Shown here one piece after another: positions 2,336 through 62,547 of a DNA stretch of 64,000 bases. The stretch's first letter is position 1. Each line of letters begins with the position of its first letter. Made by a program: the position numbers and the translations under genes. The stretch spans positions 13,394,001 to 13,458,000 of the forward strand of contig NC_087245.1 of NCBI RefSeq assembly GCF_037042905.1, written 5' to 3'. Source of the DNA: Lytechinus pictus (Eukaryota). The notes beneath the pieces were generated by a model that was given only the letters and a program-made list of their open reading frames with translations, did not search any database and was not told where the DNA came from.

Positions 2336-3318
2336 AAATACCGGTACTGATATTGAAAACTAGAACTGCAAGTTTCTTCAAATTGTCAATGAATGGAGCA
2401 TCATCAGGAGGCAACAAGGTCTCACTGAGTGGAGCAAGTTCGCGGGCCTGCACGAACCACCAGTTTGTTGAATCATACAAATATGATTTGTATTTTCAGA
2501 CTTAAAATGTGATTTGTGTGATACAGCTTTTTCAAACCTGAACAAAAAGTCAGAACCTTTGATAGACTTCTCTCAAGACCCACTTGTTGATCAAAATCAT
2601 AAAGTAAATATACATTAAAAAATCACTCACAACTTTTGACTCTATAAAACATGCAGATTCCTGCTTTTGAATCTAAATTGCTAAAAGGTCTAGCAATATT
2701 TGGCATCAATATCCACTCACTTGCTTTGTTTTAGCAGTTTTTCATCATAGTTTATATAAAATCTACTAAAGTCTAGTACATGTACGTCTTGTCTGTGATG
2801 GAAGACTATCTGCTTCAAAGCATTCCAGACATGCACAATACCTGTTTTTCTACTGGGCCAAGTCAAGTTCCATGGGAGAAATGAAGTAGTCTGGAAGTCT
2901 CTCTCCTTCCTCCCTCAATCAGGGTACTAATGGATAATTCGTTTTTCATTCCTGATTTTCGTAGAGCAAAAACGGAAGTCAACCTCATGGATTGGTCTTT
3001 GAAAACACAAAAACGAAATCACAACGAGAAAAACCCCGTTGTGATTTCATTTTTGGAGATCAAAAACAGAAGAATGAAATCAGAAATACTTTTGGTCCTC
3101 TCTGATACCTCATTCTATACCTGTGTTTGTTATATATTAAAAACAAAATCAGAACACGCTTTCTTCCCCCTGATTCTGTTTGGAAAAACGCAGACAGCGA
3201 AAACGAAATCGGGTAGTTCGCTTTCCACTTCCTGCTCTCTGATTTGGTCTTTCGCACAACCAACAGCCATATCGAAATACGTTATACACACGGGCACGCA
3301 GTGCATGCCTGATACGAC

Positions 3319-3346
3319 CATGAAGCTATTACGTAATAGCTTCATG
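3319..3346. mobile_element. Putative P-element-family excision footprint (28-bp palindrome with 7-bp TSD)
   Basis: CATGAAGCTATTACGTAATAGCTTCATG flanked by ATACGAC/TTACGAC; absent at the homologous position of the right arm (~8995-9008), which has a single ATACGAC. Confidence 0.65.
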
Positions 3347-3511
3347 TTACGACCACGTGCAACAAATGGCTTTTAATTTCCAGCGTTTTCGGACCTTCAC
3401 AGACAGTGGCGTAGCTAGGATTTTCCCCCCCGGGGGGGGGGGGGGGCAATGGGGGGTCCTAGCTTTTTCAGGGGGGGGGGGCACCGGCCATTTTTGGCGG
3501 TGTGTGTGTAA

Positions 3512-5962: not shown

Positions 5963-7718
5963 GTTGCATGCACATTTTGGGGGCTAAAATTAACAAAAGT
6001 AAAGGAATACGGGCTTTTTCAAGCATGGGGAACCATGGTCCTGACTTTTCCCCCCATCCCTTAGTGCTGCCGATGGGTAGAGTAAAAAACAACAAGGAAA
6101 GAGAGAAGACAAAATAGAAGAGAGAGAAGCGAAAGGGAGAGATAGGAAAGAAAAGGAGGGGGAAAGGGAGAGAAAGAGAAGGGAGAACGGAGGGGTCATA
6201 TCATTGTATGAACGGGATATTTTATGATTATGCCCCGAGCATTAGTGTGAAGCTCAATGCGAGATAAGAACAAAATAGAGGGGGCACACCATGGCGCACG
6301 CAGCAAAAATTTGCTTAATAATAAGTCTCCAGCGAGCGAAGCGAGCGAGAATAAAAATCACCTTCAATTTTGAGATTGATTTTGACATGGTATGCAGAAA
6401 ATGACATATCTTTCCTCTTCCTTTTCTTTCTTTCCTTTTATCATTTTTTTTTTCTCGGTTGTAGAACTTTTTTTTTTTTTTTTTTTTTTTTTTGGGGGGG
6501 GGGCAGTGCTATGCGGTTCGGGTCCGGGGCAATGACGGTACTAGGGTTTTTAACCTAGGAGGAGGCAAACAAACATTTTGGGGCCGAGGGGATGGCACAC
6601 ATTTTTTTAAAAATCGAGCGAGAAGCGCGAGCTAATTTTATTGCAAATGCAGTCCCTACTGATTTAAAAAGGGAACTGTTAAGAATCAGCTGTTTGCATT
6701 AATTGGGTCATGAAGATGATATCTCACCAAATGAATAATGCGAGCGCGAAGCGTGAGCTGAAAATTTTTGATATCCGGGATGATACCTGGCCGTTCTAAG
6801 CTTTTTTTAAATTATAAAATGAATGGCTATCTAATTCGCTGAAAATAAATCCTCTATGGAAATTATGAATACGCAGGATATGTATCTCGCTAAAACAAAT
6901 AATGAAAACTCTAATAACATTTGATTTTTAAGCCCCATGTGAACAGATAATCATTAATAACTGCGAGCGCGTATCGCGAGCTACATTTTGAATTTTATAT
7001 AATGGCCTGAAAGATTTATGTTAGTGACCAAAATTGTTGGGATCTAAATGCTAACGGTGAATGGATGAGAATATTTTTAAAATTTAAAGAACAAAAAACA
7101 TTTTTGGAGTATTATGACAACGTTTACTATACATTTTGTTTCTTCAAATTTCGGGGGGGGGGGGCAACTCACTGGGGCCTCCCCATTCGGTGGCGCCACT
7201 GGTCTGGGGCGGAGCCCCCAGAACCTCGTGATATTTTTAAACATTGCAGATGGCCATTTTTTTTTAAATCAAATCGCGGGTACATACATCACATATTATA
7301 TTAAGTTGCTAATTAATTGAATTGAAGGCTACACGTGCAAAAGAAAATGTCTCATGAGAATTATTCGAAGATTAGAGGAGCTTTATACTCATATTTTATA
7401 TTTTGACAATACGTTTTCTATCGATATACGCCCCCATCTTTTCTCCAAGAGATGACGATCTACAACAGAAGGCTGAAGATATTCATTCGACCCAACCCAT
7501 TCTCATTTTTTAATTTGTAAGTTGATTACAAAAAAGAATATGTATAATGATTAGACTGATTCTAGAAACAGAGAATGGGCAACCATTGAACATATTTTGT
7601 GCAAATAAAAGAAAAATACAGGTGTCACTCAGCTTTCGGAACTATTTTATTGGCGGAGGATTTAGGACTGAGTATAATATATGAATAAGATCTGCTCATG
7701 AGATGCTTTAACCAGTTG

Positions 7719-8825
7719 CCCCCTAAATGTGCATGCGCCGGGTCAAGCTAGTGTTTATCTGGTTGCCCGAGTCGAGTTCTCCAAGTTAGGGTACGTGGTT
7801 ACCCTGGCTAGGCCGTCGGGATATCCCTCGGGGCCCCTTGAAAAAATACTTTATTTTAATTTTAAAAATGCGATAAATATCCCTTTATTCCCTTTACTTT
7901 TGTTAATTTGAGCCCCCTAAATGTGCATGCGCCGGGTCAAGCTAGTGTTTACCTGGTTGCCCGAGTCGAGTTCTACAAGTTAGGATACGTGGTTACCCTG
8001 GCTAGGCCGTCGGGATATCCCTGGGGGCCCCTTGAAAAATTACTTTATTTTAATTTTAAAAATGCGATAAATAGCCCTTTATTCCCTTTACTTTTGTTAA
8101 TTTGAGCCCCCTAAATGTACATGCGCCGGGTCAAGTCAGTGTTTATCTGGTTGCCCGAGTCGAGTTCTACAAGTTAGGGTACGTGGTTACCCTGGCTAGG
8201 CCGTCGGGATATCCCTGGGGGCCCCTTGAAAAATACTTTATTTTAATTTTAAAAATGCGATAAATAGCCCTTTATTCCCTTTACTTTTGTTAATTTGAGC
8301 CCCCTAAATGTACATGCGCCGGGTCAAGTCAGTGTTTATCTGGTTGCCCGAGTCGAGTTCTACAAGTTAGGGTACGTGGTTACCCTGGCTAGGCCGTCGG
8401 GATATCCCTGGGGGCCCCTTGAAAAATACTTTATTTTAATTTTAAAAATGCGATAAATAGCCCTTTATTCCCTTTAATTTTGTTAATTTGAGCCCCCTAA
8501 ATGTGCATGCGCCGGGTCAAGTCAGTGTTTATCTGGTTGCCCGAGTCGAGTTCTACAAGTTAGGGTACGTGGTTACCCAGGCTAGGCCGTCGGGATATCT
8601 CTTGGGGCCCCTTGAAAAATAATTTATTTTAATTTTAAAAATGCGATAAATAGCCCTTTATTCCCTTTAATTTTGTTAATTTGAGCCCCCTAAATGTGCA
8701 TGCGCCGGGTCAAGTCAGTGTTTATCTGGTTGCCCGAGTCGAGTTCTACAAGTTAGGGTACGTGGTTACCCTGGCTAGGCCGTCGGGATATCCCTGGGGG
8801 CCCCTTGAAAAATTACTTTATTTTT
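7719..8825 (+). repeat. ~193-bp tandem repeat array, right arm (about 5.7 units)
   Basis: TAAATGT(G/A)CATGCGCC recurs at 7724, 7918, 8112, 8305, 8498, 8691 (periods 194,194,193,193,193); units nearly identical. Confidence 0.95.
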
Positions 8826-9977
8826 TGGCACACACACCGCAAAAAATGGCCGGTGCCCCCCCCCCTCCCCCTGAAAAAGCAAGGACCCCCCAGTCCCCCC
8901 CCCCCCCCCCCCGGGAAAAAAATCCTAGTTACGCCACTGTCTGCGAAGGTCCGAAAACGCTGGAAAAAGCCATGTTAAAGTGAATTTTTGTTGCACGTGG
9001 TCGTATCATGCATGCACTGCACTGCGTGCACGTGTGTTGGCTGTTGGCTGTGCGAAAGACGAAATCAGAGAGCAGGAAGTGGAAAGCGAACTACCCGATT
9101 TCGTTTTCGCTGTCTGCGTTTTTCCAAACAGGATCAGGGGGTAGAAAGCGTGTTCTGATTTTGTTTTTAATATATAACAAACACAGGTATAGAATGAGGT
9201 ATCAGAGAGGACCAAAAGTATTTCTGATTTCATTCTTCTGTTTTTGATCTCCAAAAATGAAATCACAACGGGGTTTTTCTCGTTGTGATTTCGTTTTTGT
9301 GTTTTCAAAGACCAATCCATGAGGTTGACTTCCGTTTTTGCTCTACGAAAATCAGGAATGAAAAACGAATTATCCATTAGTACCCTGATTTCCCTCTTTC
9401 CCCTTTCCCCCACTCTGAATATCCTCTTTCAAAATATGATACTACCCCCTATACATGCTATAATAAATATTGACCACACTTTGACATTAATCCTTGCATT
9501 AATGCTCACAGCTTGGTTCTATGGGAGTCATAAAAAATAATTTTATGCACAATATGTGTCATGTGCTACCGGATAGTGATATGTTTCGTTTCATGAATCA
9601 TGAAATGTCACTTTGGCACATGCAGGTACATAAAACAATTTATACTTGAACATTCATGAAAAGATTTGATAGAGAATCGAATTTCCAGGGTCAATGTAGT
9701 CAGAAGATGAAGCAGGGAATTCATCCCCAGGTTTTTGTATCTGGCAATTCATGGGGAATCCAACACAAATAAAGACTTTTTTTAGAGGAAAAAGAAATAA
9801 AAAACAGACTACATAATTTTTTTTTTCTGTCTAACCAAGGAGACTCCAGACAAGGTGACAAGCACTTTGCCGGATAGTCACAGGTATATACAGTGTATGT
9901 TGCTGCGAAGTTTCCAAGTAGCCCATGTCTCAGAGACTTCTTATACTTTCTGGTCTCCTGCAGGCTGCACGGGCCTA

Positions 9978-11608
9978 GGCTGCGTTTATGCGACCTCAAG
10001 TCAGAATCATGATTCGAATCATGATTTGAATCATGATTCAAAACACAAACATGAATCACAATACCACAGAATCAGCGTTCAGACGACCTTCATTTTAAAG
10101 CTGTTTTTCCTCGGATTCGGACCGATCCAGTGCGCATCACAGTGCGCAGTTTGACAGAGGAAGTTAGGTCAACTTTTTTCGCATGTGTTTTGGCTCCCGA
10201 AAAATCAATCCTGTACCTTCCGAATTCAGTCTATTATACCACAATTTGTTTACCTATTATTCTTCTTGTCGGTTTATCGAAAATTGTGTTCGGATGTAAA
10301 TTTTAGCGTAGATCCAATTTCATATTGACACTTGTTAACTCAACAACAATTGATATCATTGTCTGTTCAGTTAGTTCATTTACTAGTTCACTTGAAGTTG
10401 AAGACATGACAAAAAAAAAAGATGAAAAGAAGTGGACGATGCGATGCCCAACACTGAAAGCATGCATATCATATTATGTATAAATGCACTGAGCATATAG
10501 CGCGTCTTGAGCTTGGCAAGAGTCAAACCTAAAGTAGCCCGACACAATGACGTCATAGAATCATGATTGTAATCACGATATCGTTTATTCGAACATTTTC
10601 GTACGTGATTCTGCAGAAACGTCTTTCCAAACGCCCCTTTTTTCGTGTTTCATGTTTGTGATTCTAATCATGATTATATTCAATTTCGACTATGGCTGCG
10701 TTTATGCGACCTCAAGCCAGAATCATGATTTGAATCATGATTTGAATCATGATTCAAAACACAAACATGAATCACAATATCACAGAATCAGCGTTTAGAC
10801 GACCTTCATTCCAATGCTGTTTCTCCTCAGATTCGGGCCAATCCAGTGCGCATCACTAGTGCGCAGTTTGACAGAGGAAGTTTTTCGCACGTGTGTTTCG
10901 GCTCTCGAAAAATATTTTGCTTCCAGAATTCAGTCTATACCTCATTTTGTTTACTTCTATCATATAGGGTCCATATGCTTCTATTCATCTTGTTAGTTTA
11001 TCCAAAATGGTGTTCGGAAGTGAATTTCAGTGTAGATCCAATTTAATATTGATACTCTATATACTCAACAACAACTGAGATCATTGTCTGTCCAGTTAAT
11101 TCATTTACTAGAACTTGAAGTTGAAGACATGACCAAAAAATGAAAAGTAGTGGACGATGCGATGACCAAAACAGAACTTGAACATGACAAGAAATGCATG
11201 CGTAGTACATACTCATGTACATACAATGAGCATATAGAGCGCATTGAGCTTGGCAAGAGTCAAACCGAAAGTAGCCCGACACAACAGTGAGGTCATATAA
11301 TCATGATTGTAATCACGATATCGTTTATTCGAACATTTTCGTACGTGATTCTGCAGAAACGTCTTTCCAAACGCCCCTTTTTTCGTGTTTCATGTTTGTG
11401 ATTCTAATCATGATTATATTCAATTTCGACTAAACGCAATCGTGATTCTGCAGAATCATGATTTGAATCATGATTCAAATCATGATTCTAGGGTAAAAAA
11501 GTGGCGGATAAACGCACCCTAAACGCAATCGTGATTCTGCAGAATCATGATTTGAATCATGATTCAGATCATGATTCTAGGGTAAAAAAGTGGCGGATAA
11601 ACGCACCC
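9978..11608. mobile_element. PIF/Harbinger-type MITE (outer copy)
   Basis: TIR GGCTGCGTTTAT / ATAAACGCACCC; 3-bp TSD CTA (9975-9977, 11609-11611); the empty site GGGCCTAATCAC is visible in the second direct repeat at ~13054; subterminal GAATCATGATT repeats. Confidence 0.9.
10694..11519. mobile_element. PIF/Harbinger-type MITE, same family, nested in the outer copy
   Basis: Complete 826-bp copy with the same TIRs; flanks TAT (10691-10693) / TAA (11520-11522); the empty site TTCGAC-TAA-ACGCAATC is seen inside this copy at ~11425-11441. Confidence 0.85.
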
Positions 11609-14106: not shown

Positions 14107-15382
14107 ACACTATAGGATTATAGATCTACATGTAGGTTGGGTTGAGACTATCTCAAGCCAATGAAACTGAAGAATCTTGGAATAGACCTATACAATGAGG
14201 CCACAGAAAGCAACTAGATTGACTTGATAACAATTCTGAATATGTTTGCCTCTTCCTCCTATTCCAAACAATTATCAATTTTGAAGAAGAAGAAGAAAAA
14301 AAAACAATTTACAATGGATGCCACGATACAGTAAGTGATGGATAAACCAAAATAAGCCTTTCCAAAATTTAGCTCCTCCACCTTACATAAAATATGAGGA
14401 CTGAGGAGGCAACAGAAGGTATATGGTGATGGACAAAGAAAAAAAAAACAAATCCTTTCTCAGAGTGTTTTCCCCCTTCTATTGTATCCAATACTCATGA
14501 CAGACAAACAGACCCCGGACAGACAGAGAAGCACGTATGTACATGTAAAAAATCTTACATGTGTATGTATGGAATCAGGATATTGATAAATCCATTAGTA
14601 ACAATTTATTTCATATGAGGCAAAAGCATACTCATGACATTATGAACCTTTAAATTTATAATCTCTTATTGCAATTCCACAAATTGATAATCTCATATAT
14701 GTAAATCTTGACATGAAATATGTAGTAATTACTGATGAGGATTTAAACAAAAAGTATGGCATCATATTATATTTTTGGACCCATTAAAAAGGTTGGTTGT
14801 AACACAAACATGTAGTTATTTGTTTCTATTAAATTGCATAATGAGGTAATAAGAAATCTCCTGCCTTTCGGGAACATGAATTTGTTTTCAAATAAATACT
14901 GTTCATGCAAAAGTCATTGTACTCAAATGGGAAGATCCAATTTAGATGGAAGCTTCAAACATCATGCTTTGCGTAATTGCATGGAAGTACGATGTCAGTG
15001 TGGTCAAATGTAATAAACCGGTAAGGAACTCTTTTTAGGAAGATAGCCTTGCTAAAACGGAAAGATCTCACATCATGTATCTTAAAAAAAAAGTGCAAGG
15101 AAGATCAGTTTGAACGTTCCATGGTATATTGGATTACTGTGGTGACGTGGTCTTGCATTCAGACTACTGGCTCAGCTTTTTGCAAAGGCATTTCATGTAA
15201 ACGAAGCTGCACCAAACACAATTTTCATTAATAATAAAAATTCATATTCATAGCACCTTTTCCACAAAATACATGCTTTGATATGCCATCCCTTCTCAGC
15301 ATAGGAGATAAAATCTTTGCAAATTGTTTACAGTATTGTTCTTATGCACATGATCAGGATATTAGAAGAGGTAGGTCTTTAG

Positions 15383-15967
15383 AGGTCAAGTCCACCCCAG
15401 GAAAATGCTGACTTGAATAAATAGAGAAAAATCAAACTAGCATAGTGCTGAAAATTTCATCAAAATCGGATGTAAAATTAGAAAGTTATGACATTTTAAA
15501 GTTTCCCTTATTTTCACATAACAGTGATATGCACAACTAGGTGAGTCAGTCGATGATGTCCATCACTATTTCTTTTGTTTTTATTGTTTGAATTATACAA
15601 TATTTCATTTTTTATAGATTTGACAATAAGGACCAACTTGACTGAACCATATAGTATTAAACAATGCTAATTCCATATGTTCAGGAAGGAATTAATCGTT
15701 GTATCACTTGACAATGAGGGAAAAATTAGAATAATTCATATTTCATATAATAAAATACAAAAGAAATAGTGAGTGGATGATGTCATAGTCTCCTCATTTG
15801 CATACCAGCCAGGATGTGCATATAACTGTTTTGTGAAATTAAGCGAAACTTTAAAATGTCATAACTTTCTTATTTTACATCCGATTTTGATGAAATTTTC
15901 AGTGTTATGCTTGTTGGATTATTCTCTTTTTATTCAAATCAACTTTTTGTTGGGGTGGACTTGTCCT
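15383..15967. mobile_element. Kolobok-type (TTAA-targeting, AGG...CCT) MITE, family A
   Basis: TIR AGGTCAAGTCCACCCC / GGGGTGGACTTGTCCT; flanks TTAG / TTAA; long subterminal inverted similarity; same family at 30628, 61337, 61837. Confidence 0.85.
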
Positions 15968-17689
15968 TTAAGTTTTTATTGAATTGATCAAATATTGGTG
16001 GTGATTTAAGGAGAGGATCATCATTATTCTCATCAATAACACCATTCATAATTTTTCTAATCAGAAATAGAATGATCAGTCCTCATTTGTATCAATCGAA
16101 TTATCTTTCACCACTAGATTATCATCATCAAAAGCTATCCTAATTATTGCAAAAAAAAATTATTGTCATATTTATAATTATTACTTCTAGTTTGCTTGTT
16201 TGTTTGTTTATTTCCCCTATATTTTTTTTAAAATTGTATTTCAATGTTATTTGTTGTTCACTCTTTATGTATGTCTTATATTTATTGTATTTAATTGTAA
16301 TTGTATCACGGTGGTGCCCCACCCACAATTTTTTTAAATGAAAACTTCCAGGGGCTCCCAATCCCATGTTTTTATCTAATTTGTATATACCTGTATCTTT
16401 ATGATTGATTGATTGATTGAAATAAATTTTGAATTGAATTAAATTGAATTGAGCAAGACAACATGGGGAAACATTTTATGCAATAACTTTTTCTCAAATT
16501 TATTATAATAAAAATAATAAACCTTAAGTTTAAAAAGTCAATATTTCTTGGCTTTTATTATTGGCCTCCACATGTGAAATAAATAGTAGTACCTTTTCTC
16601 CTGCAGAGATTTCCAAAAATATACTGAAATTCAACCTGAAATCATAAGTGAAATGTGGACCACAAAATATTCCAGGCAAATTATCAGTTTCAGATCAATA
16701 CTTGTTTTTTTGCTTTCAGTCTGAGTGATTAATATAGCTCCTCCTGCTTCAAGCATGAGAGAATGAATTACTTACATTTAGTAACAATTTGTCACAATTT
16801 ATTTTTTATCAGTATTTTTGTCTAAATTAAACTTCTTTTTAGTTTTATGCAATTTATTATATTTTTCTTCAATTTACATGAAAACATAAAATTTTTAAAG
16901 ATTTTTTCCTTCTGCATAATAACAATCAATATAACTCACCGTAATCAAATCAATACAGACTGGGGAAAAAAGAGTGATGCGGGGGCTACGCTAGAACATA
17001 GTGGGAGTGGTGGAAATGAAAACCCACTTCCTGAATAAATCTAATTGCCTTGAAGAAAGCCTATGATTGAGGTGATGCTGGAAGGCCCAAATAATGTCAC
17101 TTTCCTCCTCTCACACCAATATGTCTCTATCAATCAAGCTCAACTGATATCTGCTTCCAGATGTCCTGAACATCTAGCTTTGTTGATACATCCAAGCAGA
17201 AGCCGCGCTGCTTGCAGTAGCAGCTATTGGCTCGCCTGTGCCTGCGAATATAGCAAAGTCACTATCATGTGTCCCAATGTAACGCTGCAAGATTCCCAAT
17301 GCATCATCCTGTTATATCAATCCCCAAGTCTTAAGTGTAGAGAGAGTTCAAAAGCCTTGATAATGTTATCCCCATGAGACCAGTATGTCAATGACATACG
17401 TGTATGCATTTGCCCAGCATCAATTGATTCTTCCTTTCTTGAAAGATACAGGCTTTGCGATTGACTTGAACCATGTAAAACCGATTCCTCTCATACATCA
17501 TTAAAAATTGAAAAAATTTCAATAATTTTTCCCCCTTGGCCTTGCTAAAATCATTGATTGCATACATTAAGTCATATTATGTACTGTCCATGTAGGTAGA
17601 GATCATTTGAAAAGAGACAAGAACTTGGTTACAAGGCCTTAATGTGTCCTGTTTGAAAAATCAATTGTTTACATGAATATTACATAAAC

Positions 17690-29999: not shown

Positions 30000-30627
30000 T
30001 TCAATCGTGATATGAAAGATGTTTACTTTTATGACTGGGAATGGGGGACATTGAAAAGGCTCTTTGTTTCTCAATATATCCGCATTTTGTAATCACGTTT
30101 TCAATCATAATTCATTTTGCTGTTTAAATTTGGAAAATCAACATTGAACACACCCTTATTTCAACAACTTGAGTTGGTTCTACTGATATTCTACTAGTTG
30201 AATAAAATCTTTCATGAGTCAGTCTACCAACATGTAGGCCTACCATAGATCTATATTGCACACATACAGGAGATACCTGTACCTGGCTGAAATTATGGAA
30301 CAGGCAGTAGAAAGTCTAGTACATGGATCACAGAATCACATCAAATCAAGTTTTTCATTCTAAAACACAAGACCTGATTACGGTTACTTTTCACAGAAAG
30401 AAATCAGTCAGATACCAGGAGAAATTCTTAAAGTCAGAGAGCAAGGCTAACATATTTGTTTTCTATGGCTATCAAGTGACGAAGAGAGCTGCACGCCTGA
30501 CCTTAGAAATCAGTTCATAGGGTCCAGGAATCAATACCAATAACTGGAGTCTCTTTAAAATGCAAAAGAGGCGAATGACATGGAAAATTCTTCACTCATT
30601 TTTACAGCTTGGATAATGGATATTTAA

Positions 30628-31213
30628 AGGACAAGTCCACCCCAACAAAAAGTTGATTTGAATGAAAAGAGAAAAATCCAACAAGCATAACACTGAAAAT
30701 TTCATCGAAATTGGATGTAAAATAAGAAAGTTATGACATTTCAAAGTTTCGCTTAATTTCACAAAACACTTATAGTTATAGGTCGGTATGTAAATGAGGA
30801 GACTGATGACATCATCCACTCACTATTTCTTTTGTATTTCATTATATGAAATATTTTAATTTTCTCCTCATCGTTGTGTGAAACAACAATCAATTCCTTC
30901 CTGAGCATGTGGAATTAGCATTGTTTAATACTATATGGTTCAGTCAAGTTGGTCCTTATTGTCAAATCTGTAAAAATTGAAATATTGTATAATTCAAACT
31001 ATAAAAGACAAAAGAGTGAATAAGAGACATCATCGACTGTCTCATTTACATGTTACTGAGTTATGCATATCACTGTTTTGTGAAAAATAAGTGAAACTTT
31101 AAATGTCATAACTTTCTTATTTTACTTCTGATTTTGATGAAATTTTCAGCATTTTGCTAGTTGATTTTTCTTCATATATCAAAATCAACATTTTTCTGGG
31201 GTGGACTTGACCT
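30628..31213. mobile_element. Kolobok-type MITE, family A (opposite orientation to 15383 copy)
   Basis: TTAA|AGGACAAGTCCACCCC ... GGGGTGGACTTGACCT|TTAA, perfect TTAA TSD, 586 bp. Confidence 0.9.
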
Positions 31214-32816
31214 TTAATAAAGTGACAGATTGACTAAGATTTCAGTCAGATTGAGAAAGTAGGATTATTCATATTTTGATGTTGCTTCATGTATGAAGAA
31301 AGTAGAGCAGTCTGTAGGCACGACTAGACTACAAGCCAATCTCTTTTTTAACCAATCGAGCGTGTACCTTCTTCTCTGCAGTGCAGGTTTTGCAAGATCA
31401 TTGTAGATCAAGTCTATAAAACAGATCCGGTATTTTTTAATACACCAGATGACTACCGGTAATCCATGGTATGAAAATATAATGAATAAAGTGGTAGGTT
31501 GACAATTGGATAAATAAACAAATAGGCCAATGTGATATACCAAAGTGGTACTATTAGACCAAATTGCATTAAAAGTGACTTGGATAAAATGGATCCAGCA
31601 AGTGTATAATCTGAAAATTAGACCAACTGGTACTATACCAAGTGGCTAAATAAAGCCAACAACCACTTGTCTGTGCCTTGTGAGGTTAGGAGGTCAATAG
31701 ATGAAGTCATCCAGGAAAAAGGGTCAATACAATCATCAAGCATCTCCTTCAAAGCGAGAGCAAACCCAAGCCAATATACTTAGATTTCAGGCCTTCAATT
31801 TCCCACTTGAAATACTACACACAATGAAAAACGAGTGATACCGCTACACCTAAAAAGATTAGCAGCATGTACTTGTAGTATTTTTTTATTCAGGAATTGT
31901 TTACAATGCAGGTACATATACAGAAAAATTCACCTACAAATTGACAATGCAACATTTTCTCATCAAGAAATACACAATGAAAAAAAGAAATCTGCTTTAT
32001 ATTCTTTTGGATACATTTAATAAATTATAGGCCTACTGAATGCAAGATTTCAGTAAAGATATAGGCCCTAATCATATGGATGGTGTTTTCAGAGCAAAGG
32101 TTAATAGTCTCTCAGATGGTATGTAAAACGTAAATATATCTCACGTATAATTATCATCATTTAACAAATTCCTTGCCAACTAGAACAAATCAAATATAAC
32201 CATTTCGCACAATTTGTACAAATTATTCTTGATCATCACCCCCCCCCCCTCTGTCCTTCCCCTTGATCCAAAGCTTCTCAAAAGTTGAACGCCCATCACA
32301 ACAAAGTCACCTTGCAGTGACGAATGGTGGAAAAATGTTTTCATAAAAAGGTCACACTTGAATGTAGACACAAGAAACCTAACGAACTTTTTTACACATC
32401 TTATCAAATGTACAATCTGTAATGATACCCTATAATATTTGATAAACAAAATGGCATAATTCAAGATATATGGTGTTTGACTTTCCACCTGTTCAAACAA
32501 AACAGATGATATAGATTATACATCAGATATTGATGTTACAATGCAGATTAAAAAGCATAACTTAACACCTCCTTTTATGTATTTGAATTAAAAAGCAGAA
32601 ATAATGAGATACAATGAAGGATAGATTGATCTCCTTTTGTGTGGCAGTGTTTCCATAATTCAAGAGTTGAGATGATAAGAGATGGGGGTTAGAGGGCAAA
32701 AACACCAAGTAGGGTAAAGACAAAGGCAGAGTTTGAATTGCATATTAGGCTACGTTCACTCAACCTCATGCAATCAACCCTAGAAACATGTTTTTGAAAG
32801 GCATATAGTTCAAAGT

Positions 32817-32869
32817 TTGCTCGTATGTAGCGGTAGTTTGAAGTTCAAACTACCGCTACATACGAGCAA
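32817..32869. repeat. Perfect 53-bp palindrome
   Basis: TTGCTCGTATGTAGCGGTAGTTTGAA-G-TTCAAACTACCGCTACATACGAGCAA: 26-bp arms, 1-nt spacer. Confidence 0.95.
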
Positions 32870-38739: not shown

Positions 38740-39197
38740 AATATGAAATATGAAATATTTTAATTTCCTTACAATAATGTGAAATAAAGTTTAATTCTAA
38801 ATAGGTTCATTATTGCGGAATGAAATAATCGCTAGAGGGTATTCATTTGTCTCGCAATCTACTATGGAAGTTTAATTCATTCCTTAATATGTTGAGTTAA
38901 CATTTTTGTAACCTAAATGTGATTTTTTAAGTCAAATGTTTTTTTTTGGTCAAATCTGCAAATACTGAAATATTGTATGATTCACATTATAAAATGCAAA
39001 AGAAATATGAGTGACATTATTGATTCTCTTATTTGCAGAATACTTTATTGTGCATATAACTGGTGTGTGAAATATAAGTGAAATTTAGAAATGTAAGAAC
39101 TTTCATTAATATTCCACACCCAGTCTTGATTGAAATTTTTAGCATTATGCTAGTTTAATTTGATTTTTCTTCCGTTGGGGTGATTTTCCGCTTTAAA
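38740..39197. mobile_element. Old degraded relative of Kolobok-type family A
   Basis: Motifs ATATGAAATATGAAATATTT, GTGCATATAAC, TGAAATTTTTAGCATTATGCTAGTT and terminal TTGGGGTGATTTTCCGCTTTAA match family A in order. Confidence 0.55.
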
Positions 39198-39201
39198 GTA
39201 T

Positions 39202-40153
39202 AACAAGTGGAATGCCTCTGGCCGTCTCACCTGCATCACGCGATTCAATATAGCAGCAGTGCTGATTTTGAAAACTACTATAACTCGCACAAGATGTTCA
39301 GTGATACTTGGTTACTCTTATTTCCACGTTTTATGAACTAGACCAATACACTTATAGAGATATGATGGCAATTCAACAAATACCCCCAACGTGGCCAAAG
39401 TTCTTTGACCTTACATGACCTTTGACCTTGATCATGTTACCTGAAACTCGCACAGGATGTTCAGTGATACTTGATTACTATTATGTCCAAGTTTTATGAA
39501 CTAGACCAACACACTTTCAAATTTATGGCTGTAATTCAACAAATACCCCAATTTGGCCAAAGTTCATTGACCCTAAATGACCTTTGACCTTGATCATGTG
39601 ACCTGAAACTTGCACAAGATGTTCAGTAATACTTGATTACTATTATGTCCAAGTTTCATGAATCAGATCCATAAACTTTCAAAGTTATGATGGTAATTCA
39701 ACAGATACCCCCAATTCGGCCAAAGTTCATTGACCCTAAATGACCTTTGACCTTGGTCATGTGATGTGAAACTCATGCAGGATGTTCAGTGATACTTGAT
39801 TAACCTTATGTATAAGTTTCATGAACTAGGTCCATATATTTTCTAAGTTATGATGACATTTCAAAAACTTAACCTTAGGTTAAGATTTTGATGTTGATTC
39901 CCCCAACATGGTCTAAGTTCATTGACCCTAAATGACCTTTGACCTTGGTCATGTGACATGAAACTCAGGCAGGATGTTCAGTAATACTTGATTAACCTTA
40001 TGGCCAAGTTTCATGAACTAGGTCCATATACTTTCTAAGTTATGCTGTCATTTCAAAAACTTAAACTCAGGTTAAGATTTGGTGTTGACGCCGCCGTCGC
40101 CGTCGGAAAAGCGGCGCCTATAGTCTCACTCTGCTATGCAGGTGAGACAAAAA
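39202..40153 (-). mobile_element. Helentron-associated non-autonomous element (HINE/DINE-1-like) with internal tandem repeats
   Basis: Subterminal inverted repeat GTCTCACCTGCAT / ATGCAGGTGAGAC; extra IR GTCTCAC near the 40153 end; T-run termini on minus strand; GCCGCCGTC microsatellite; tandem units with TGACCTTTGACCT (GATGTTCAG at 39293, 39456, 39618, 39781, 39973). Confidence 0.85.
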
Positions 40154-40293
40154 TCTTACACTTTATAAAGTATAAAAATCAAAGGCCGGAAATTTGCTGC
40201 AGCAAAAACAGTGTGAAATTTGAGCACTCTAGACTAATGTAAAAAAAAACTAGATTTTAATTCGTCATGCGGACGAATTAGGTGGTCTGTCGT

Positions 40294-41270
40294 ATAGATA
40301 GATAAACAGGAAAAAAATATTTAAACAGATATTAGATTGAAAAATAGATAGACAAACAGATTTACATAATCAAACAGATACATACAAGAAAGATATATAA
40401 TTATAGTAGATGGATGGACTGATGGATGGAGAGATCAATTATAGGTGGTTATATTAATAAAACATAGACATATAGATAGATAGAGACACAGACATATAGA
40501 TAGATAGAGAGACAGACTTATAGATCGATAGATTGATTGATAGATATATAGATAGATAGAGAGAGAGAGAGATGATTGGTGGTTATATTAATAAAACATA
40601 GATAAACATATAGATAGAAAGAGAGACAGACAGATAGATAGATAGACAGATAGATCTAGACAGACATATAGATAGAGAGACAGACATATCATGAAGCTAT
40701 TACGAGCTATCTCGTAAGAGACAGACATATAGATTGATAGAGAGACAGAGATAGATAGAGAGACAGACATATAGATGAATAGATAGATAGCTAGATAGAG
40801 AGACAGACAGACAGATATATAGATAGATAGATAGATAGATAGAGACAGGCAGATATATAGATGGCTAGATAGATAGACATATCTAAACAGATAGATACAT
40901 ATATATAATAATTAAATATAATTATATATCATAATGTATGTACATTTTCTCATGTTAATTTTATGTTTATAACAAGATATATTGTGATTGTTTTTTTAAT
41001 ATGCAGGACCCCAAGGGAGAGCAATTTTTTGTTGATTGGGTATCCTGTTGAAATATTGTTAATAAATAAATAAATAAATAATAAATATAGCGTATTAGAC
41101 ACACAGAGAGAGAGATAGATAGATAAACAGACAGAATAGATATACAATGTAGGTAGATAGACAGACAGACATATGGATAGATAGAGAGAGAGGGACGTAT
41201 TCAAACAGAAAAATATATATTAGACAGAGAGATGTGATGTAGGTAGATAGACAGACAGATAAATAGATAT
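40294..41270. repeat. GATA/GACA-type compound microsatellite inside the Helentron-like element
   Basis: Long TAGA/CAGA/GAGA runs, interrupted by an AT-rich block at ~40900-41095. Confidence 0.9.
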
Positions 41271-41379
41271 GATATAAAAAGTAATTATAATCTGTTTTAT
41301 TTTGCAATATTTTAGCTATTATTTGTTAGAATTCTTATAATTGATCGGGGGCAAGATAGCTTAAAAAAAAAAAAATCAT

Positions 41380-41453
41380 GTTCACCCGCGGACTCGAACC
41401 CCTGCCTGCATGATGGAATGAGAAGTAAGTCTGACGCCTAACCGATTGAGCTA
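41380..41453 (-). ncRNA. tRNA-derived Pol III-promoter-like sequence (pseudo-tRNA)
   Basis: Minus strand TAGCTCAATCGG (A box, 41453-41442) and GGTTCGAGTCC (B box, 41400-41390), followed by a 13-T run (41375-41363); no convincing cloverleaf. Confidence 0.55.
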
Positions 41454-42850
41454 GAATATTTCCCATAGACTTAACACTTAAGCAAAACACCAGAATCTCA
41501 AATCCAATCTTGCAAGTGAATTACGGGCATGATCCCGACATCTGATCGGAAAATGAAGGAAACGCAACCGAAAGCTTAGAATCTCAGCTACAACATACTA
41601 AAAGCTCAGGGATAACTAGCAACAAAAATTGGAGATATGGCTTACGAAATAGAAGAATGTAGAATCTAGTTTTGAGAAAAAGTCATGTCCCATAGAGATT
41701 ACCCGCAAAATGAGTAAAAATGACATGCCATTATTATTTGCAATTTTTGAGGATGATTTGTCTATCAAAATGAAAAATAAAGGCAATAACTTAGAAAGAG
41801 TAAGAACTAAGCTACAACATATCAAAAATTGGGTGAAAATTGACCAATATTCACGGAGTTAGAGCAAGATTTGCATAATTATAATGACGTCATAATAGGC
41901 AAAATGGATTTTTTGAATTCCGACGCCATTTTGATGACGTCATAATATAATTGAGGGTCAAATGAGACATGAAATTATATCTCTAGTTCATACTCTATCA
42001 AAATATGAAAAAAAAATTGGGGGTCCCCATGCGTTCTGAAGAGCTACAGCGGATTTTCTATAGGCATGTTTTTGCCCATATATGGCCTATAGTGAGAGCT
42101 CGCGCGCACACGTGCTGCAAACTTTAACGGGTGTTAATTTCCTTATTAATGGTCGTAGAAGGTTGATCAAGGTATCAAATTGCTCAAAATTATATGATCA
42201 ATGCAATGAAATAAAAAAAAACGGTGTTTCTGAGTTGCATTGAGGCGTTACGCGCGGAAACGCGCGCGCATACGTTTGCGCGCGCAATTTTTTGAAATGC
42301 TTAAAATGACCTAAAACGTACTCTGTTTTGGTCAAAAAGTGATTTTTAGCATTTTAAAATTTTGACGCGCGCGTCGTGACCTTCAGGTGACCTTTGATGA
42401 CATGACCTGATGACCCTTGATCTGAAGTTTATGTCATGTGAATTTGATTTATTTTTGATAATTGATAATGGAGATATGATTGATAATGTGATTTTACAAA
42501 ATGGCGTCTAGATGACGTCATGATGACGTCATGACATTAAGATTCTTGCAGAATTGAGGTCTTATTGATGTTGATATGTGGTGATATTTTGATGATTATT
42601 GAATATGAACTTTCTGAGATTTGCTGTCCACAAGAAATGGAGGAAATAAAAATAAGAAATAAAAATAAATAAATAATAAAAAGAAAATTCGGACAAACAT
42701 AAAAGGTGATCTGTCAATTTTTGACAGACCACCTAAAAACGGGCCTCATAGAAGAGAACAAGGGCATCAAAAGTTAATAGAACAGGGTCTAACACAAAGT
42801 TTAATGATTGTAGCTCACAATTTTTGAGGGATTTTGATCACTACAACTAA

Positions 42851-43348
42851 TATGCTTTTCACACTGCATTTCCTTAACCCTATACTATCCTTAACCCCGG
42901 ACAATCCTTAACCCCATACTATCTTTTTTTCAATTCACACTGTCTTTCTTAACCCCATACTATTTGCTTAGCCGGGGTTAATGCCTTAACCCCGGGCAAT
43001 CACACAACTCATTAATATTGATGATTTTTACCATACAGAGCACGATTAACGTTCAATTTCGACTTCTGTGATTGGCTAATGCTTAGCCCCACTTTTCCTT
43101 AGCCCGGTTTCGAATCACACTGCATCTCTTAGCACCGCAATTGTGGTGCTAGCACCGCAATATGCCGGCTAACCCTGCTTTTTTGCAGGGCCAGATAGTA
43201 CCGTACTATTTACTGTGCTAGCCCACTTTGCTAAAACGTAGTGTGAAAACGAAGTGGAATAAGCTTAACCCCGGGAAATTGGTGGGGCTAAGACCCCCCC
43301 CCCTTAGCCCCACCAATTTAGGACAAAAAGTGCAGTGTGAAAAGCATA
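42851..43348. mobile_element. Harbinger-like MITE, family B
   Basis: TIR TATGCTTTTCACACTGCA / TGCAGTGTGAAAAGCATA; flanks TAA / TTA; CTTAACCCC/CTTAGCCCC subrepeats; inverted copy at 56528-57033. Confidence 0.85.
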
Positions 43349-44331
43349 TTAGTGATTCAACATAGAATCAATCAACCAAATCAATAGATTACTACTGTAA
43401 CAGGTATACAATATTTAGAGGTAGTAAATCATAATGTAGGATAAATAACAAGTGTGATTTAATATTCTTTATAGCAAAGTACATGTATACCTAAAAATAA
43501 GCTATAGATCAATATTTTTTTTCAATTTCCTCAACAAAAAAAGAAAAACAAAACAAATTTTTATTACATGTACATGTAGGCCTGTAAATGTACATTTTTA
43601 TCGTCACAACATAATAAAAAGATAGAATAGACATGTAAAAGTTCTTAATACTGGTAGACTCTGAACATTAACTTGGATGAATGGGTTTACCTTTAACCTG
43701 TTGAAAGGAGTTTTTGAACATGAAATGGTATACTTGAATGGAAGGTTGAATGCCCTGTGGGACAGGGCATGAGGCTTTGTTTAGAGGCAGATCATGTGAT
43801 CATGGATTCCGGAGGTATACCAGGAAATAATCAGGCAAGGATTAGGAGCCAGACAGGAGAAGGGTGGAAGGAATCAGGGTAAAGATGTGTGTGTGTTTGG
43901 GTGGGAGGGGCACAACTCCCCTACCACCTTTTAGCTCGAAAAGTGACTTAATTTCCCTCAAAATAGGAAAGAGGCAAAATTTCTCACAGAAATATGCATA
44001 CATCAATCATCATCATTGATGCTTATGTTTAATATGCTATGTGTTTTAATATGCTGTCTTTGACATTTCATGTTGTATTGTTTATCTTATGCTATATGGT
44101 TTATATCATGCTTAGTAAAAATTTTCATTGACATTATGTCATATCATGCCATCAGAAGTTACATTGTGGGACCTACACGGATACTATTGTAAAAACTTTT
44201 GTCATTTGGCTACATGCTGCGATTGACTTGTTTAAACTTGAATATTGGATGGTCAAATATCAAATTTTCCACTTCAAATTGAGAACGGTTGGGTAGGTTA
44301 AGGGTGTGTATCAGCGAGAGAGTGCTACTTA

Positions 44332-53800: not shown

Positions 53801-56527
53801 CATAGCAAGCAGCAGCACTTGAAGACGGTATGCGCAAGAGAGCTGAAAAGAGAGACTAAAAAGCGGGCCAGTGCCGTGGGCTCTCGCACCATGCACAGCA
53901 TGCTCTCCCACTCTAATTACTAGCTGGGTTAAAGTGCAGTGCAGACACGCACTTGCTTTCCATTATACATGTAAGAAGCATTCACACCACACAAACATGA
54001 CCCCCGTGTGAACCTGAATACTAAATTAGCAGGGGCAACAACCAGTCCAGACACTCCCTTAGTCCAGTCCCCATCAACAATTTATCACCAGGATTGATTG
54101 GTGACTGGACGGAACTAATCCCTATAGGTGGTCATTCATGGATCAATATTCAATTCAATATGGAAAGGAGAAATGTTCTGCTCATATGAGACTGAATTGT
54201 GAATGAAACTGTTTCAAACATATAGGCCCTCTATTGTAAAATAGAATTTAATATGGACCGCTATATGTACATTCTATAAGATTTTGGAATCATCAAAATG
54301 ACTGAAATAGAATATAATAAAACTAGTTTGCCGAAATTCACATGTACTACACACAATTGCATGTATGGGACTACACACATATATTTGGTCACTATATTTC
54401 ACCTACATGTACTATTTTATATTTATATTGACTAAAGGTATCTGTAGAGAGGCTTTATCCCACAGTAATTTAGTTAATTTTTTCTGTCCCTGTCATTCCA
54501 ATGGTTATTTCTTCTCTTGTATTGTTAACTGAAAAGTGTTGTTCTTTGTATTTTTTTTAGCCGAATATATAATTATAACATTCTTCCTGTGAAAGAATCT
54601 GAAAGCTCACAGCGATTGTACTTTAACCTTATCCACAACCTGAGGTTCCCTTTAATAAAAATTAAAAAATCCATTAGCACTTTCATTTTTTACCAGATCT
54701 GACCATCCCCCTGCTAGTGCATTCCACAACAATGTACTGCCTCCATGGTTGAAGAATCACTCTTTCTTCGGCTTAGGTCATTTATCTCTGACTAATCGAG
54801 GAATTCTTAGCAAATTCTGACTTGGCTATTGGCTAGACACTTTTTATGACATCATAAGCTTCAAATTGGACTAAACACACACAATCAGGTTTTGGAATAG
54901 GACCTAATACCTATTAAAAGTCTCTGGCTTGGTTAAACAGTGTAAACCTATAACTAACTACCATAGCAATAAAGATAAATAATACCAAGATCCAGGACTC
55001 ATAAGCAAATTTGATTGCTGGGGATATACACCTAGTAAAAATAAAAATAATTTTACATGGCATGTGTGTTTTTAAAACAAAACAATAATAGCACAATAAT
55101 GAGAAGGGAGAGGAGACATAATAAGAATGAAAAAAGGAGCAAGAAGAGGGAGAATGAGGGATAGAACTGTATGACTTTTAAAAAGTTTGAGTACCTTTAA
55201 TGGTTGAAAGGTTCAAAATAAAAAGAAGCAGGCATTGGCAAAGAGATTGGAAAAATTCAATCCGGTATGAATGCAGCCCTCTACATTAAAATGCGGACAG
55301 CCCGAAGACTATAAATTTTGCAGCCAGCTCAACGATAATCTTGACATCAAAGTTGGGCATGCATAATGCATGCTGCATGTCTATACTGCAGCTATACACA
55401 CATATTCCACATTTCCCACAATTTCTGACATGATAGCAGACACTGGATACAGAATGCTCCCTGAAAATATTCATGAAATTCCAACATGTAACCTAGGCAT
55501 CCTGATTAGTAACCGATGAATATGATGTATCTTCATTCATATCGAATGGTGAAGATTGTGACACTCATTCATGCAACTGTAACTGTGATGTAGACAACAT
55601 TATAGTTTTACATGTATATATTTGCTTGTTAATTTCTTTGGAGTACATGTACTTGCTTACTTTAGTTTTTAAAACAATTATATACAAAGATATAATTGAT
55701 TTGGAGATGTGCCCCTTGCATCAGGTCATGCTACCAAACAAAGCAGAAAGAACTACTGAATATTAAATTTGATGGACAACCTTCTCCCAACACCAAAGAA
55801 AAAGGGAAGAAAGATAAAAAGAAACAAACACAGAATATAATCACCCACATCCTGATGAATCTTTGAACAAAGTGAGTGTGTCAGTGAACTGTAAAATCCT
55901 CTTGAACAATCGGCTTATTGATCTTCATTGATTTCTAACCCTCATAGTATTCAACTCACAAACTGTGACCACACTATCTTTTCCTCTTTACTGGTTGGAT
56001 TAAAATAAAAAAAATTTCCATTTCAATTATAACATACACCTCTTCTCTACCTCAGCAAGACAACAGTCACAACACCATGTACAGAATGCATTATTCTAGC
56101 AGGTAACAAATTCATCTTAACAGTATGTTGTAAAATAAAATGATAATTTTTTTTATTACATAGATGAAATTCAATCAGTTCTACCAGCCAGAGATAAACA
56201 ATTAACAGTGTTCAATATTTCCACAATGTGAATTGTATATTAATGAGAAATAAATCAATTCCCATCAAACATGCCCAGAGTCAGAATGGGATTTAGCATA
56301 CACTGTAGAAAGTCATTTAAAAAAGGTTATTGCCCCTCCACTGGCTACATGTATGTCATGATTAATTAAACTTCAATTATTTTTTCAAATTAAAAACTAA
56401 TTAACTAAATGAGACAGCACTTAACTTCACTGAATATTTAAAGATGCTTCAAATAAAACCATTATACAATATATTGCGCACTATCATTAATCGCTATGTA
56501 ATTCAATAAAATAAAACACTAAATGTA

Positions 56528-57033
56528 TATGCTTTTCACACTACAGAAATTGTCCTTAACCCCGGGAAATGGGTGGGGCTAAGGGGGCCTCAGCCCCACT
56601 AATTTCCTGGGGTTAAAGCTTAGCCCACTTCGGTTTCACACAACATGTTTTACCAAAGTGGACTAGCATGGTAAATAGTACAGTACTATCTGGCCCTGCT
56701 AAAAAGCAGGATTAGCCGGCTTATTGCGGTGCTAGCACCACGATCGCGGTGCTTAGAAATGCAGTCTGAAACCAAACCGGACTATTGAAAAGTGGGGCTA
56801 AGCATTAGCCAGTCACAAAAGTCAAAATTGCACATTAATTACACGCTGTGTGGAAAAATCATCAATTTTATTCATGATCTGTGCGACAGTCCGTGGTTTA
56901 GGCATTAACCCCGGCTAAGCAAATATGGTAGTATGGGGTTAAGTCTAGAAAGACAGTGTGAAACAAAAACAAAGATAGTATGGGTTAAGGATGGTATGGG
57001 GTTAAGAAAATGCAGTATGAAAAGCAAAGCATA
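56528..57033. mobile_element. Harbinger-like MITE, family B, inverted copy
   Basis: TATGCTTTTCACACT ... TGCAGTATGAAAAGC; internal sequence is the reverse complement of 42851-43348. Confidence 0.85.
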
Positions 57034-59504: not shown

Positions 59505-61336
59505 TTAATTTCTAATGTTTTTCTCTCCCTATATCCCTCTTCATCCCACTCTCTTCCTTACCTCTTCTTCTACATGTATAATTTTTGCACCTTTTCTATC
59601 AATCATTTCCTCTAAATTTAGGTCAATTAATTAATTTGTAGCTGGCCTTCTGAAATAACCTTTAACATTCCTATCCCCTAACGTTCAAATTAAGTTTAAC
59701 ACTGATACAGCAGGACTAGGACCTACATGTATTTCACAGGCTTGTAATAGGCTACAGTGCATTTCAGTTCAGTTTCAATGTGTTTCAATAGTGTCATTCC
59801 ATAAAGTGTTATGGCACCCATATTTTGTTTGCCCTTTAATTTTGTACATTTGCATATGTTTATTAAATCATATCTACATGTACGTGAAAGTGAGGAGTCC
59901 AATGCATAGTCTCTTTAGCTAGGTTCAATCAGGAGAGAAAATGAAAAAAACCTTCACTCTGCACTGGGTTGCTTTCATCAAACTTCTCCCCTCACAGCTC
60001 GCCCCTCTCATAGAAGCTTCCTCCCACATGAACCCAACATGACAACAACCTCCATATTTGACAATTCTCAGAAAATGAAACTTCCTCCACTTTCTCAGCT
60101 CTCCCTATTCCTTCAATGACCAGATATGTTGCTTGTACGCAAACAGTTTTCTTTTTCTCTCTCCCTTGTTGAATATATGACTAAAACAACAGGACTACTT
60201 TCAAACTAAAAAAAAAAAAAAACAGCTGATTTTAAAAGTTAATAATCTCATTTGACCAAGTTTTCCCAACAGGACCCCCCCCCCCCCCCACAAAAAAGAG
60301 AGAAGATTTGTACTGTAATGTTTTTTTCATTCTAAAATCATTGTTTACTTGTAGATACATGTAGTTATTGTACTCAACAATGTTGTAATGGCATCTCAAT
60401 ATTTACTACCCTATCAAACCACCACTTAATGAAGGCTATATTTTTTTTAATGTATTTTTTGTATTTTTACTGCATTCATACGGTACTTCATCACCCATGC
60501 ATCCAACGATCAATGCTCTTTAATGTGACATTGTTGATGTGACTTTGGTGACATAAGATTGCAAGTAGGTAGGCCTGCATAATTAATTCAATCAACATAA
60601 AATATTCACTAATTCTTTATTGAAGTCTTGAATAACAGACATCTATGATGCTTCAGGGCCTTGGAAGCAAACTGTGTATAAAAAATATGTTTCATTATAT
60701 CAACTACACATCTTTATTTCCAAATCGTTGGTTGAAACATACTAACAGTTGATTTATAGGTGCAGGCCTCTAGTTTGTTAAAAAGGGGTCTGATTTCGAA
60801 ACCTAAAGAAGATGCAAGTTGTGACTTTGCTGGACTCGAATTGCAAGATCCATTTGTTGAATTAGGTGCACTTTGGGTCTGTTGATTTAGACTACATTAG
60901 GGGCTGTGTCAACCAGAACACAACACAAGGAAGATGTAATTAGTAGCCTTTATTCAGACCTCTGCAAAACTGAAATGTGTTTATACTGTGAAGATCAAGA
61001 AAGAATCAAGTCAACCAACATACTTGATAACTTGCAGTGTCCAAAAATGGACACACTTTCTATTCTAACAAATTGTTTAAAGCCCTTTGTGTGAACTATT
61101 TCTGCCAGGGCCTGGTTACATAGATATAAAACTTGTATCAGGCACTCTACCGCACACTGAAAGGGTCTGTGCAAGCAAACTACTATACAAGTGGCTGTGG
61201 GTCACTGGACTTTGATAGAATGGGGGGGTCATGTGACTTGGTGGACAAAGTTCATATCATAAAACAATTGATGAATCCAATTATTTGAGTATTAGGGTGG
61301 GCTGATAACTACATGTATGGAAAGTGGAAGTTAAAA

Positions 61337-62547
61337 AGGTAAAGTCCCCCCAGAAAAAATGTTGATTTTAATCAATATAAAAAAATCAAACAAGCATAAT
61401 GTTCACTTCAAATTTCATCCAAATCGGATGTAAAATAAGAAAATTATAACAGTTTAAAGCTTCGTTTATTTTTCACCAAATAGTATATGCTCAACTCGGT
61501 GATATGCAAACGAGAGAATCAATGATGCCCATCACTCACTATTTCTTTTGTGTTTTATTGTTTGAATTGTACAATATTTCAATTTTTACAGATTTGACAA
61601 TAGGCCTAATGACCAATATGACCATACCAAAAAAAAAGGTTAAATCAATTGTCATTCCATGTATTAAGGAATAAATCACATGACAATGAGGAGAAAATTG
61701 AGATATTTCATATTTATAATACAGTAATGAAAAACAAAAGAAAGAGTGGGTGACGTCATCAGTCCCCTCATTTGTATACCGATCAGGATGTGCATGTACA
61801 TGTAACTGTTTTTGTGAAATTAAGTGAAACTTTTAAAGGACAAGTCCACCCCAACCATTAGTTGATTTGAATAAAAAGAGAAAAATCCAACAAGCATAAC
61901 ACTGAAAATTTCATCAAAATCAGATGTAAAATAAGAAAGTTATAGCATTTTAAATTTTCGCTTAATTTCACAAAACAGTTATATGCACATCCTGGTTGGA
62001 ATGCAAATGAGAAGACTGATGACATCATCCAATCACTATTTCTTTTGTATTTCATTATATGAAATATGAAATATTCTAATGTTCTCCTCATTGTCAAGTG
62101 AAACAAAGATTAATTCCTCCCTGAACGCGTGGAATTAGCATTGTTTTGATACTATATGGTTCAGTCAAGTTGGTCAAATCTGTAACAAAAGAAATATTGT
62201 ATAATTCAAACAATAAAAAACAAAAGAAATAGTGAGTGATGGACATCATCCACTGTCTCATTTGCATGTCACTGAGATGTGCATATAACTGTTTTGTGAA
62301 AAATATGCGATACTTTAAAATGTCATAACTTTCTTATTTTACATCCGATTTTGATGAAATTTTTAGCGTTTTGCTAGTTTGATTTTTCTCTATTCATTCA
62401 AATCATCATTTTTCTGAGGAGGACTTGACCTATAAATGTCACAACTTTCTTATTTTACATCCGATTTTGATGAAATTTTGAGTGTAATGCTTGTTGGATT
62501 TTTCTCCTTTTATTCAAATCAACTTTTTGTTGGAGTGGACCTATCCT
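61337..62547. mobile_element. Kolobok-type MITE family A, older outer copy
   Basis: AGGTAAAGTCCCCCCAG ... GGAGTGGACCTATCCT|TTAA, split at its internal AACTTTAAAATGTC site. Confidence 0.8.
61837..62431. mobile_element. Kolobok-type MITE family A, nested inner copy in inverted orientation
   Basis: TTAA|AGGACAAGTCCACCCC ... GGAGGACTTGACCT|ATAA; host sequence resumes ATGTCACAACTTTC. Confidence 0.85.

Follow-up and report, generated by a model that had tools for sequence, protein, structure and literature searches.

The insert and its surroundings

The locus comprises a 28-nt insert in a degenerate microsatellite, which itself lies within a Helentron-type element (Table 1). We worked on a 64-kb window, by which we mean the whole stretch of DNA that was analysed, and our reading of the insert at 40690-40717 was identical, base for base, to the one given in the preliminary description.

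Table 1. Features of the insert, its host and the sister scar (positions refer to the window).
Feature	Position	Strand	Remarks
Host: Helentron-type non-autonomous element (HINE/DINE-1-like)	40250..42735	-	
Degenerate GATA/GACA microsatellite, recipient of the insertion	40460..40881		
Left stub, 15 nt; putative outer end of a transposon TIR	40690..40704	+	Identical to 3319-3333
Two bases, AG	40705..40706	+	TIR positions 16-17 (17-nt reading) or start of templated filler (15-nt reading)
4-nt filler	40707..40710	+	Direct copy of stub positions 8-11; also reverse complement of the basic 4-nt unit of the array
7-nt inverted copy of 40700-40706	40711..40717	+	Inner tip of the right stub or fold-back copy of the left stub
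Predicted hairpin			7-bp stem and 4-nt loop; -6.8 kcal/mol for 40676-40731
6 nt in place of the outer 10 nt of the right stub	40718..40723	+	Equal to left flank 40677-40682 and to the start of the array unit
Putative 7-bp target duplication, left copy	40683..40689	+	Length borrowed from the 3319 scar
Putative 7-bp target duplication, right copy, or the same 7-mer of the adjoining array unit	40724..40730	+	
Possible filler template	40785..40792	-	Reverse complement equals 40705-40712
First scar: perfect 28-nt palindrome	3319..3346		Two 15-nt stubs with a common central CG
First scar with its 7-bp flanking repeats	3312..3353	+	Repeats at 3312-3318 and 3347-3353, 1 mismatch
Empty site of the first scar: single 7-mer	9000..9006	-	Opposite arm of the 2917-9390 foldback element

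At the level of the host, we found 13-bp subterminal inverted repeats at 42723-42735 and 40279-40291, a short inverted repeat beside the 5' subterminal one, a 3' hairpin at 40259-40279, and T-runs at both ends. The same features, including a T-rich insertion site and an internal microsatellite, are listed for DINE-1/HINE elements in the part of PMC4067079 available to us. All the listed features of Helentron-associated non-autonomous elements were seen on the minus strand of 40250-42735, and the Helentron-like nature of the host, already proposed from a first inspection, is thus well founded. The host belongs to a multi-copy family: when contigs from 4 of 22 public runs (best share among the 22, 0.45) were compared over 40050-42950 except 40460-40881, many of them matched the end at 40250-40291 and then diverged; none of the pieces listed runs across the whole stretch. 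No second copy of the host element was present within the 64-kb window.

Two further observations were made around the host. The segment 41377-41450, inside it, looks by eye like a tRNA-derived head in reversed orientation; ARAGORN found no tRNA. A second, very high-copy Helentron-type element with internal repeats of 163 and 192 bp occupies 39282-40154 and ends about 95 nt before the host; many public contigs cease matching at 40153-40155, where it ends.

The microsatellite contains a 134-nt higher-order duplication (40445-40578 and 40579-40690), and both copies open with the same 24-nt non-repetitive stretch. In a rough alignment –too rough to define an empty site– the related copy at 40445-40578 carried no such stub.

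The same 13-mer abuts the insert on either side (40677-40689 and 40718-40730) with no mismatches, as had been described. Besides being a possible duplication, it is a unit of the array, with a third copy at 40760, and its 7-mer GACATAT occurs eight times in 40251-41300. Thus, the length of the target duplication is not measurable at 40690, and a 13-bp target duplication was ruled out as the origin of the repeat. The repeat may instead reflect joining to the adjoining array unit through a 1-nt match.

The insert is real and foreign to its microsatellite surroundings, since the other 394 nt of the array lack 16 of the 25 tetramers that it contains. Exact matches to its first 15 nt are seen at 3319 (plus strand), 3332 (minus strand) and 40690 (plus strand) of the whole 64-kb window. 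The number of chance copies expected on both strands of 64 kb was 1.5e-4 with an order-0 background and 5e-5 to 9e-5 with Markov orders 1-4. With an expectation of about 1e-4 over these five background models, the identity to 3319 is as unlikely by chance as was initially supposed. At its other end, the insert carries at 40711-40717 the reverse complement of stub positions 11-17, that is, the inner tip; the right-hand stub of this scar lacks its outer 10 nt.

Chance resemblance, host sequence or an assembly error would be a very unlikely source of the motif. The site does lie in a low-complexity array, within the 40460-40881 segment left out of the contig comparison. However, the low chance expectation, the tetramers foreign to the array and the lack of a stub in the roughly aligned array copy all speak against this explanation, as does the presence of the motif as an insertion in a different host at 3319.

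A sister scar with an empty site

The host of the first scar is a foldback element. The scar is in its left arm, and the right arm offers a direct comparison: it has the same flanks and a single 7-mer, but no palindrome. The filled arm has gained 35 nt over the empty one, made up of the 28-nt palindrome and a second 7-mer with 1 mismatch. The shared 15 nt and this empty site indicate that the motif is the end of a mobile element and not host sequence. We therefore ruled out a stub that is part of a host consensus, since it occurs as an insertion in an unrelated host; for 40690 this evidence is indirect. With 15 nt identical in two unrelated hosts, the assignment of both scars to one family also stands, and these are the only two scars carrying this 15-nt end in the window.

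The foldback element at 2917-9390 has arms longer than 1 kb and a 6-bp target duplication. Only 4 positions differ between the outer 353 nt of its arms, which also hold tandem arrays of 184-193 bp.

Taken alone, the 3319 scar can be read just as well as 26 nt flanked by 9-bp repeats, again with one mismatch. At 40690, the base that follows the 7-mer is informative: elsewhere in the array GACATAT is followed by AG at five of seven places and by C at one, so the C at 40690 does not continue the array unit, and CATG ends with a 7-bp duplication are the simplest reading. The two scars together favour CATG ends and a 7-bp target duplication. The putative targets at 3319 and 40690 are alike at 5 of 7 positions in opposite orientation, for which random 7-mers give a chance of 0.02-0.03.

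The 9-bp reading would suit footprints of another superfamily that leaves long end stubs, such as Mutator-like elements (9-bp duplications, ATG ends) or hAT-like deletion derivatives, and no transposase was found among the window ORFs scanned. Nevertheless, this reading requires an extra substitution at 40690 and a coincidental C before both stubs. Excision by hAT elements leaves hairpins on the flanks and Tc1/mariner excision leaves 2-3 nt, products unlike the 15-nt stubs seen here. We consider another superfamily rather unlikely.

Tails of 15, 16 or 17 nt all lead, by prediction, to the 3319 palindrome as the microhomology join with the least deletion. The palindrome fits P-type excision and cannot separate these tail lengths. 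We also scanned the window for CA...TG micro-palindromes: a flanking repeat accompanied 3 of the 100 candidates, compared with 0-1 per shuffle over ten shuffles, and among those candidates only 3319 had a long arm.

The inserts at 3319 and 40690 are both 28 nt long, and in form the 3319 copy is built like a MITE. They could thus be copies of a 28-nt micro-MITE, or of an internally deleted longer element, with the 40690 copy later rearranged by microsatellite slippage or conversion; microsatellites are unstable, and a second event would explain the lost outer right part more easily. We regard this as unlikely. The fly P transposase requires internal binding sites further in than the terminal repeat (PMC7776569, in the portion available to us), and 28 nt leave no room for these. 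The inserts differ after base 15, so their equal length may be a coincidence, and the join at 3319 falls on the microhomology that end joining would be expected to use.

Length of the tail and origin of the filler

The stub measures at least 15 nt at three places (both stubs at 3319 and the left one at 40690), and 15 nt is all that the two scars confirm independently of each other. The preliminary description had gone further and read exactly 17 nt of TIR. That exactness was not supported by the analysis: the TIR length is defined only by the scar's own hairpin, and bases 16-17 (AG) could be templated filler, because AG also starts the copies of stub positions 6-11 and of array positions 40785-40792.

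Both copies are exact. Positions 40705-40710 directly repeat the 6 nt at 40695-40700 (stub positions 6-11), and 40705-40712 are the reverse complement of the 8 nt at 40785-40792. The latter is the only AG-NNNN-CT 8-mer within 100 nt on either side (2 of 256, counted once per strand), and the match should not be overrated, since the filler itself is simply the basic 4-nt unit of the array in reverse complement. A templated origin of the filler is in line with both copies.

In a 17-nt tail, the terminal AG would give a 2-nt primer match to either template. A 15-nt tail would have no primer match, given that the 9-mer that includes the preceding G has no other nearby copy. For this reason we lean, by judgement, towards a tail of 17 nt.

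The same family and event with a tail that is not 17 nt long would be a credible alternative, although we do not favour it; it concerns the cut depth only and overlaps with our preferred explanation. In one variant, a transposon end of 15-16 nt would be followed by an 8-nt templated insertion (40705-40712) and 5 nt of the opposite tip. In another, the element end would run past 17 nt, and part of what we call filler would be TIR. As a special case, a 28-nt palindromic scar like that at 3319 could have formed first, to be later broken at its centre and repaired again. Only 15 nt are common to the two scars, the bases from 40705 onwards have the two possible templates described above, and 40713-40717 are equal to positions 14-18 of the 3319 palindrome. 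Two extra complementary bases would arise by chance in 1/16 of cases and are automatic under fold-back synthesis. Against these points stand the priming by AG, available to the 17-nt tail and not to the 15-nt one, and the known depth of the fly P transposase, 17 nt in the part of PMC7776569 available to us.

The right-hand piece of the scar deserves separate attention. A symmetric stop at 17 nt had been put forward as a match to the P transposase stagger. We could not sustain this symmetry as independent evidence: the right piece has no outer part, and its 7 nt may be a copy of the left stub. If it was copied from the left stub by fold-back, symmetry at 17 is automatic. Trimming from the break was ruled out as the origin of the short right piece, since it would take the inner and not the outer part. 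As break-end trimming removes inner bases first, loss of the outer 10 nt needs copying of the tip and joining elsewhere, or a second event.

Search for an intact element

No longer element with this end was found in the 64-kb window. A scan for the 17-mer gave no matches in viral contigs and 19 loci in metagenome contigs, collections that need not contain the repeats of this animal. The 19 loci had no shared continuation past base 17 and no likeness to the window outside the motif. Their inverted partner was never closer than 2 mismatches in 13, and even such a weak partner was seen at only two of the 19. We take these metagenome matches to be probable chance hits.

The window is non-coding and repeat-rich. 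We scanned 205 of its 212 ORFs of at least 60 aa against Pfam, and none of the 205 reached a Pfam cut-off; two matches fell under E 0.01, both far below their cut-offs. Among the same 205 ORFs, we found no transposase with a THAP domain and an RNase H fold with GTP-binding insertion. A literature search, with subscription journals and Repbase outside its scope, listed no paper containing this end sequence, and no study of P elements in sea urchins was among the papers listed.

Other repeats were observed in the rest of the window. There are two perfect palindromes, of 73 nt at 983-1055 (36-bp arms, 1-nt centre) and of 53 nt at 32817-32869 (26-bp arms, 1-nt centre), neither with an evident flanking duplication. 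The octamer TACATGTA has 44 copies in the whole window as a raw count. At 10004-11608, a palindromic 12-bp unit is clustered in three-copy runs, and the segment 11430-11608 is an 89-bp tandem duplication. A palindromic MITE-like family of about 600 bp has three copies (15378-15971, 30619-31217, and 61832-62440) and fragments at 38872-39172 and 61335-61837. Finally, an element of about 500 bp with internal palindromes is present at 42853-43349 and 56527-57026, in opposite orientation and 79% identical.

Proposed mechanism

We suggest that 40690-40717 is probably a P-superfamily excision footprint, with a 7-bp duplication, long staggered cuts, and theta-type joining with templated filler. In the order of steps that we infer from the junction, a cut-and-paste transposon of this superfamily, with CATG ends and a 7-bp duplication, would have inserted at 40689/40690 in the microsatellite of the Helentron-type host. 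Its transposase would then have excised it by a staggered cut, leaving on the chromosome long single-stranded tails of the element ends, at least 15 and probably 17 nt long. The break would have been sealed by error-prone end joining of the polymerase-theta type.

During this repair, the left tail would have been retained, and its 3' AG may have primed the 4-nt templated filler, taken from the tail itself or from the microsatellite. Next, 7 nt of the opposite tip would have been copied, either from the right tail or by fold-back of the left one; in the fold-back variant, the 3' end would pair on AG after the filler and copy five more bases. The end would finally have been joined to the right-hand array unit, where the junction has a 1-nt microhomology (the A that starts 40718-40723), with the outer part of the right tail being lost. 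The 3319 scar would be an independent, cleanly joined footprint of the same transposon family.

Significance

By itself, the 40690-40717 scar is one ordinary repair scar in non-coding DNA, and both P excision footprints and templated insertions are already known phenomena. Its value is as a data point. The 17-nt stagger has been reported for the fly enzyme (PMC7776569, PMC2895639), and the available part of the zebrafish study (PMC10983969) does not state how deep the fish enzyme cuts. Should intact elements with this end be found, a genome-wide table of stub lengths could test from sequence whether the stagger is a trait of the superfamily. The scar also carries a warning: since a symmetric stub can arise spuriously through templated repair, cut depth should not be read from single scars.

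We put forward only tentatively that the unusual 17-nt stagger, measured by biochemistry for the Drosophila P transposase, is conserved in a distant, non-insect P family that makes 7-bp duplications, that it can be read from natural scars, and that the two scars represent a local hop of one element. Their distance of 37 kb would suit local hopping, which we offer as a suggestion; for fly P, the accessible portion of PMC7776569 gives a range of about 50-150 kb.

Comparison with known systems

One close known system is the Drosophila P element. According to the parts of the sources available to us, its transposase makes a cut on one strand 17 bp into the terminal repeat (PMC7776569), and excision leaves 17-nt 3' tails on the chromosome (PMC2895639). 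The junctions in Tables 1-3 of the latter paper, as far as available, amount to 114 by our count (116 in the figure legend). In the commonest one, the ends are joined at a self-complementary dinucleotide close to the tips; many others have near-full tails with tail-copied fillers, including partial copies of the opposite tip. Three junctions extend beyond the duplication.

In form, the 3319 scar belongs to the commonest Drosophila class. Both systems have the CATGA start and would share element-end stubs between duplications, joins at tip microhomology and tail-copied fillers. They differ in the duplication, putatively 7 bp here (as read from 3319) and 8 bp in the fly, and the scars described here are natural, lie in a non-insect genome and are known from footprints only. 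Moreover, the right stub at 40690 has the inner tip but no outer part, an arrangement seen in none of the 114 fly junctions counted in the available Tables 1-3 of PMC2895639.

At the sequence level, the stub and the fly P tail are alike at 10 of 15 positions, the first five (CATGA) being identical. As good a match to the fly tail is found for 330 of the 127,970 15-mers of the window (0.26%), and for 47 of the 860 that start with CATG (5.5%). The likeness would thus give modest support to a P-like end, and with CATG taken as given this support is weak (p about 0.055). The zebrafish Pdre2 end begins with CATAC, sharing the CAT start, in the available part of its description. The P-like assignment made in the preliminary description remains plausible, with CATG ends and a 7-bp duplication favoured and the 3319 junction of the form described above; the likeness to the fly end is weak beyond the first 4 nt.

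Galileo, also of the P superfamily, makes duplications of mostly 7 bp, and footprints are not mentioned for it in the part of PMC4168063 available to us. The 7-bp duplication would be common to Galileo and to the scars of this window. Inspection of the putative targets gave agreement with GTANTAC, the Galileo consensus, at only 3-4 of 6 positions.

In Drosophila mojavensis, BuT5 has left a naturally fixed remnant of 27 bp, in which 12 bp of one end and 15 bp of the other stand between target duplications and which is read as an excision footprint in the available part of PMC3355041. This is in line with our scars, which would be natural end remnants of similar size bounded by target duplications. 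The BuT5 duplications are 9 bp long, and both BuT5 stubs are anchored at their outer ends, unlike the right stub at 40690. BuT5 relies on a transposase of the P type.

Regarding the repair, our assignment of the pathway is drawn from the anatomy of the junction only, and a close parallel is with insertions made by polymerase theta. The human enzyme extends a stem-loop from two terminal base pairs (PMC11292364, in the part available to us), which resembles the fold-back that may have produced the right-hand piece at 40690. As far as PMC11292364 and PMC2895639 could be consulted, these insertions consist of the same kind of short direct and inverted copies of break-adjacent DNA, primed by 1-2 nt, as those seen at 40690-40717.
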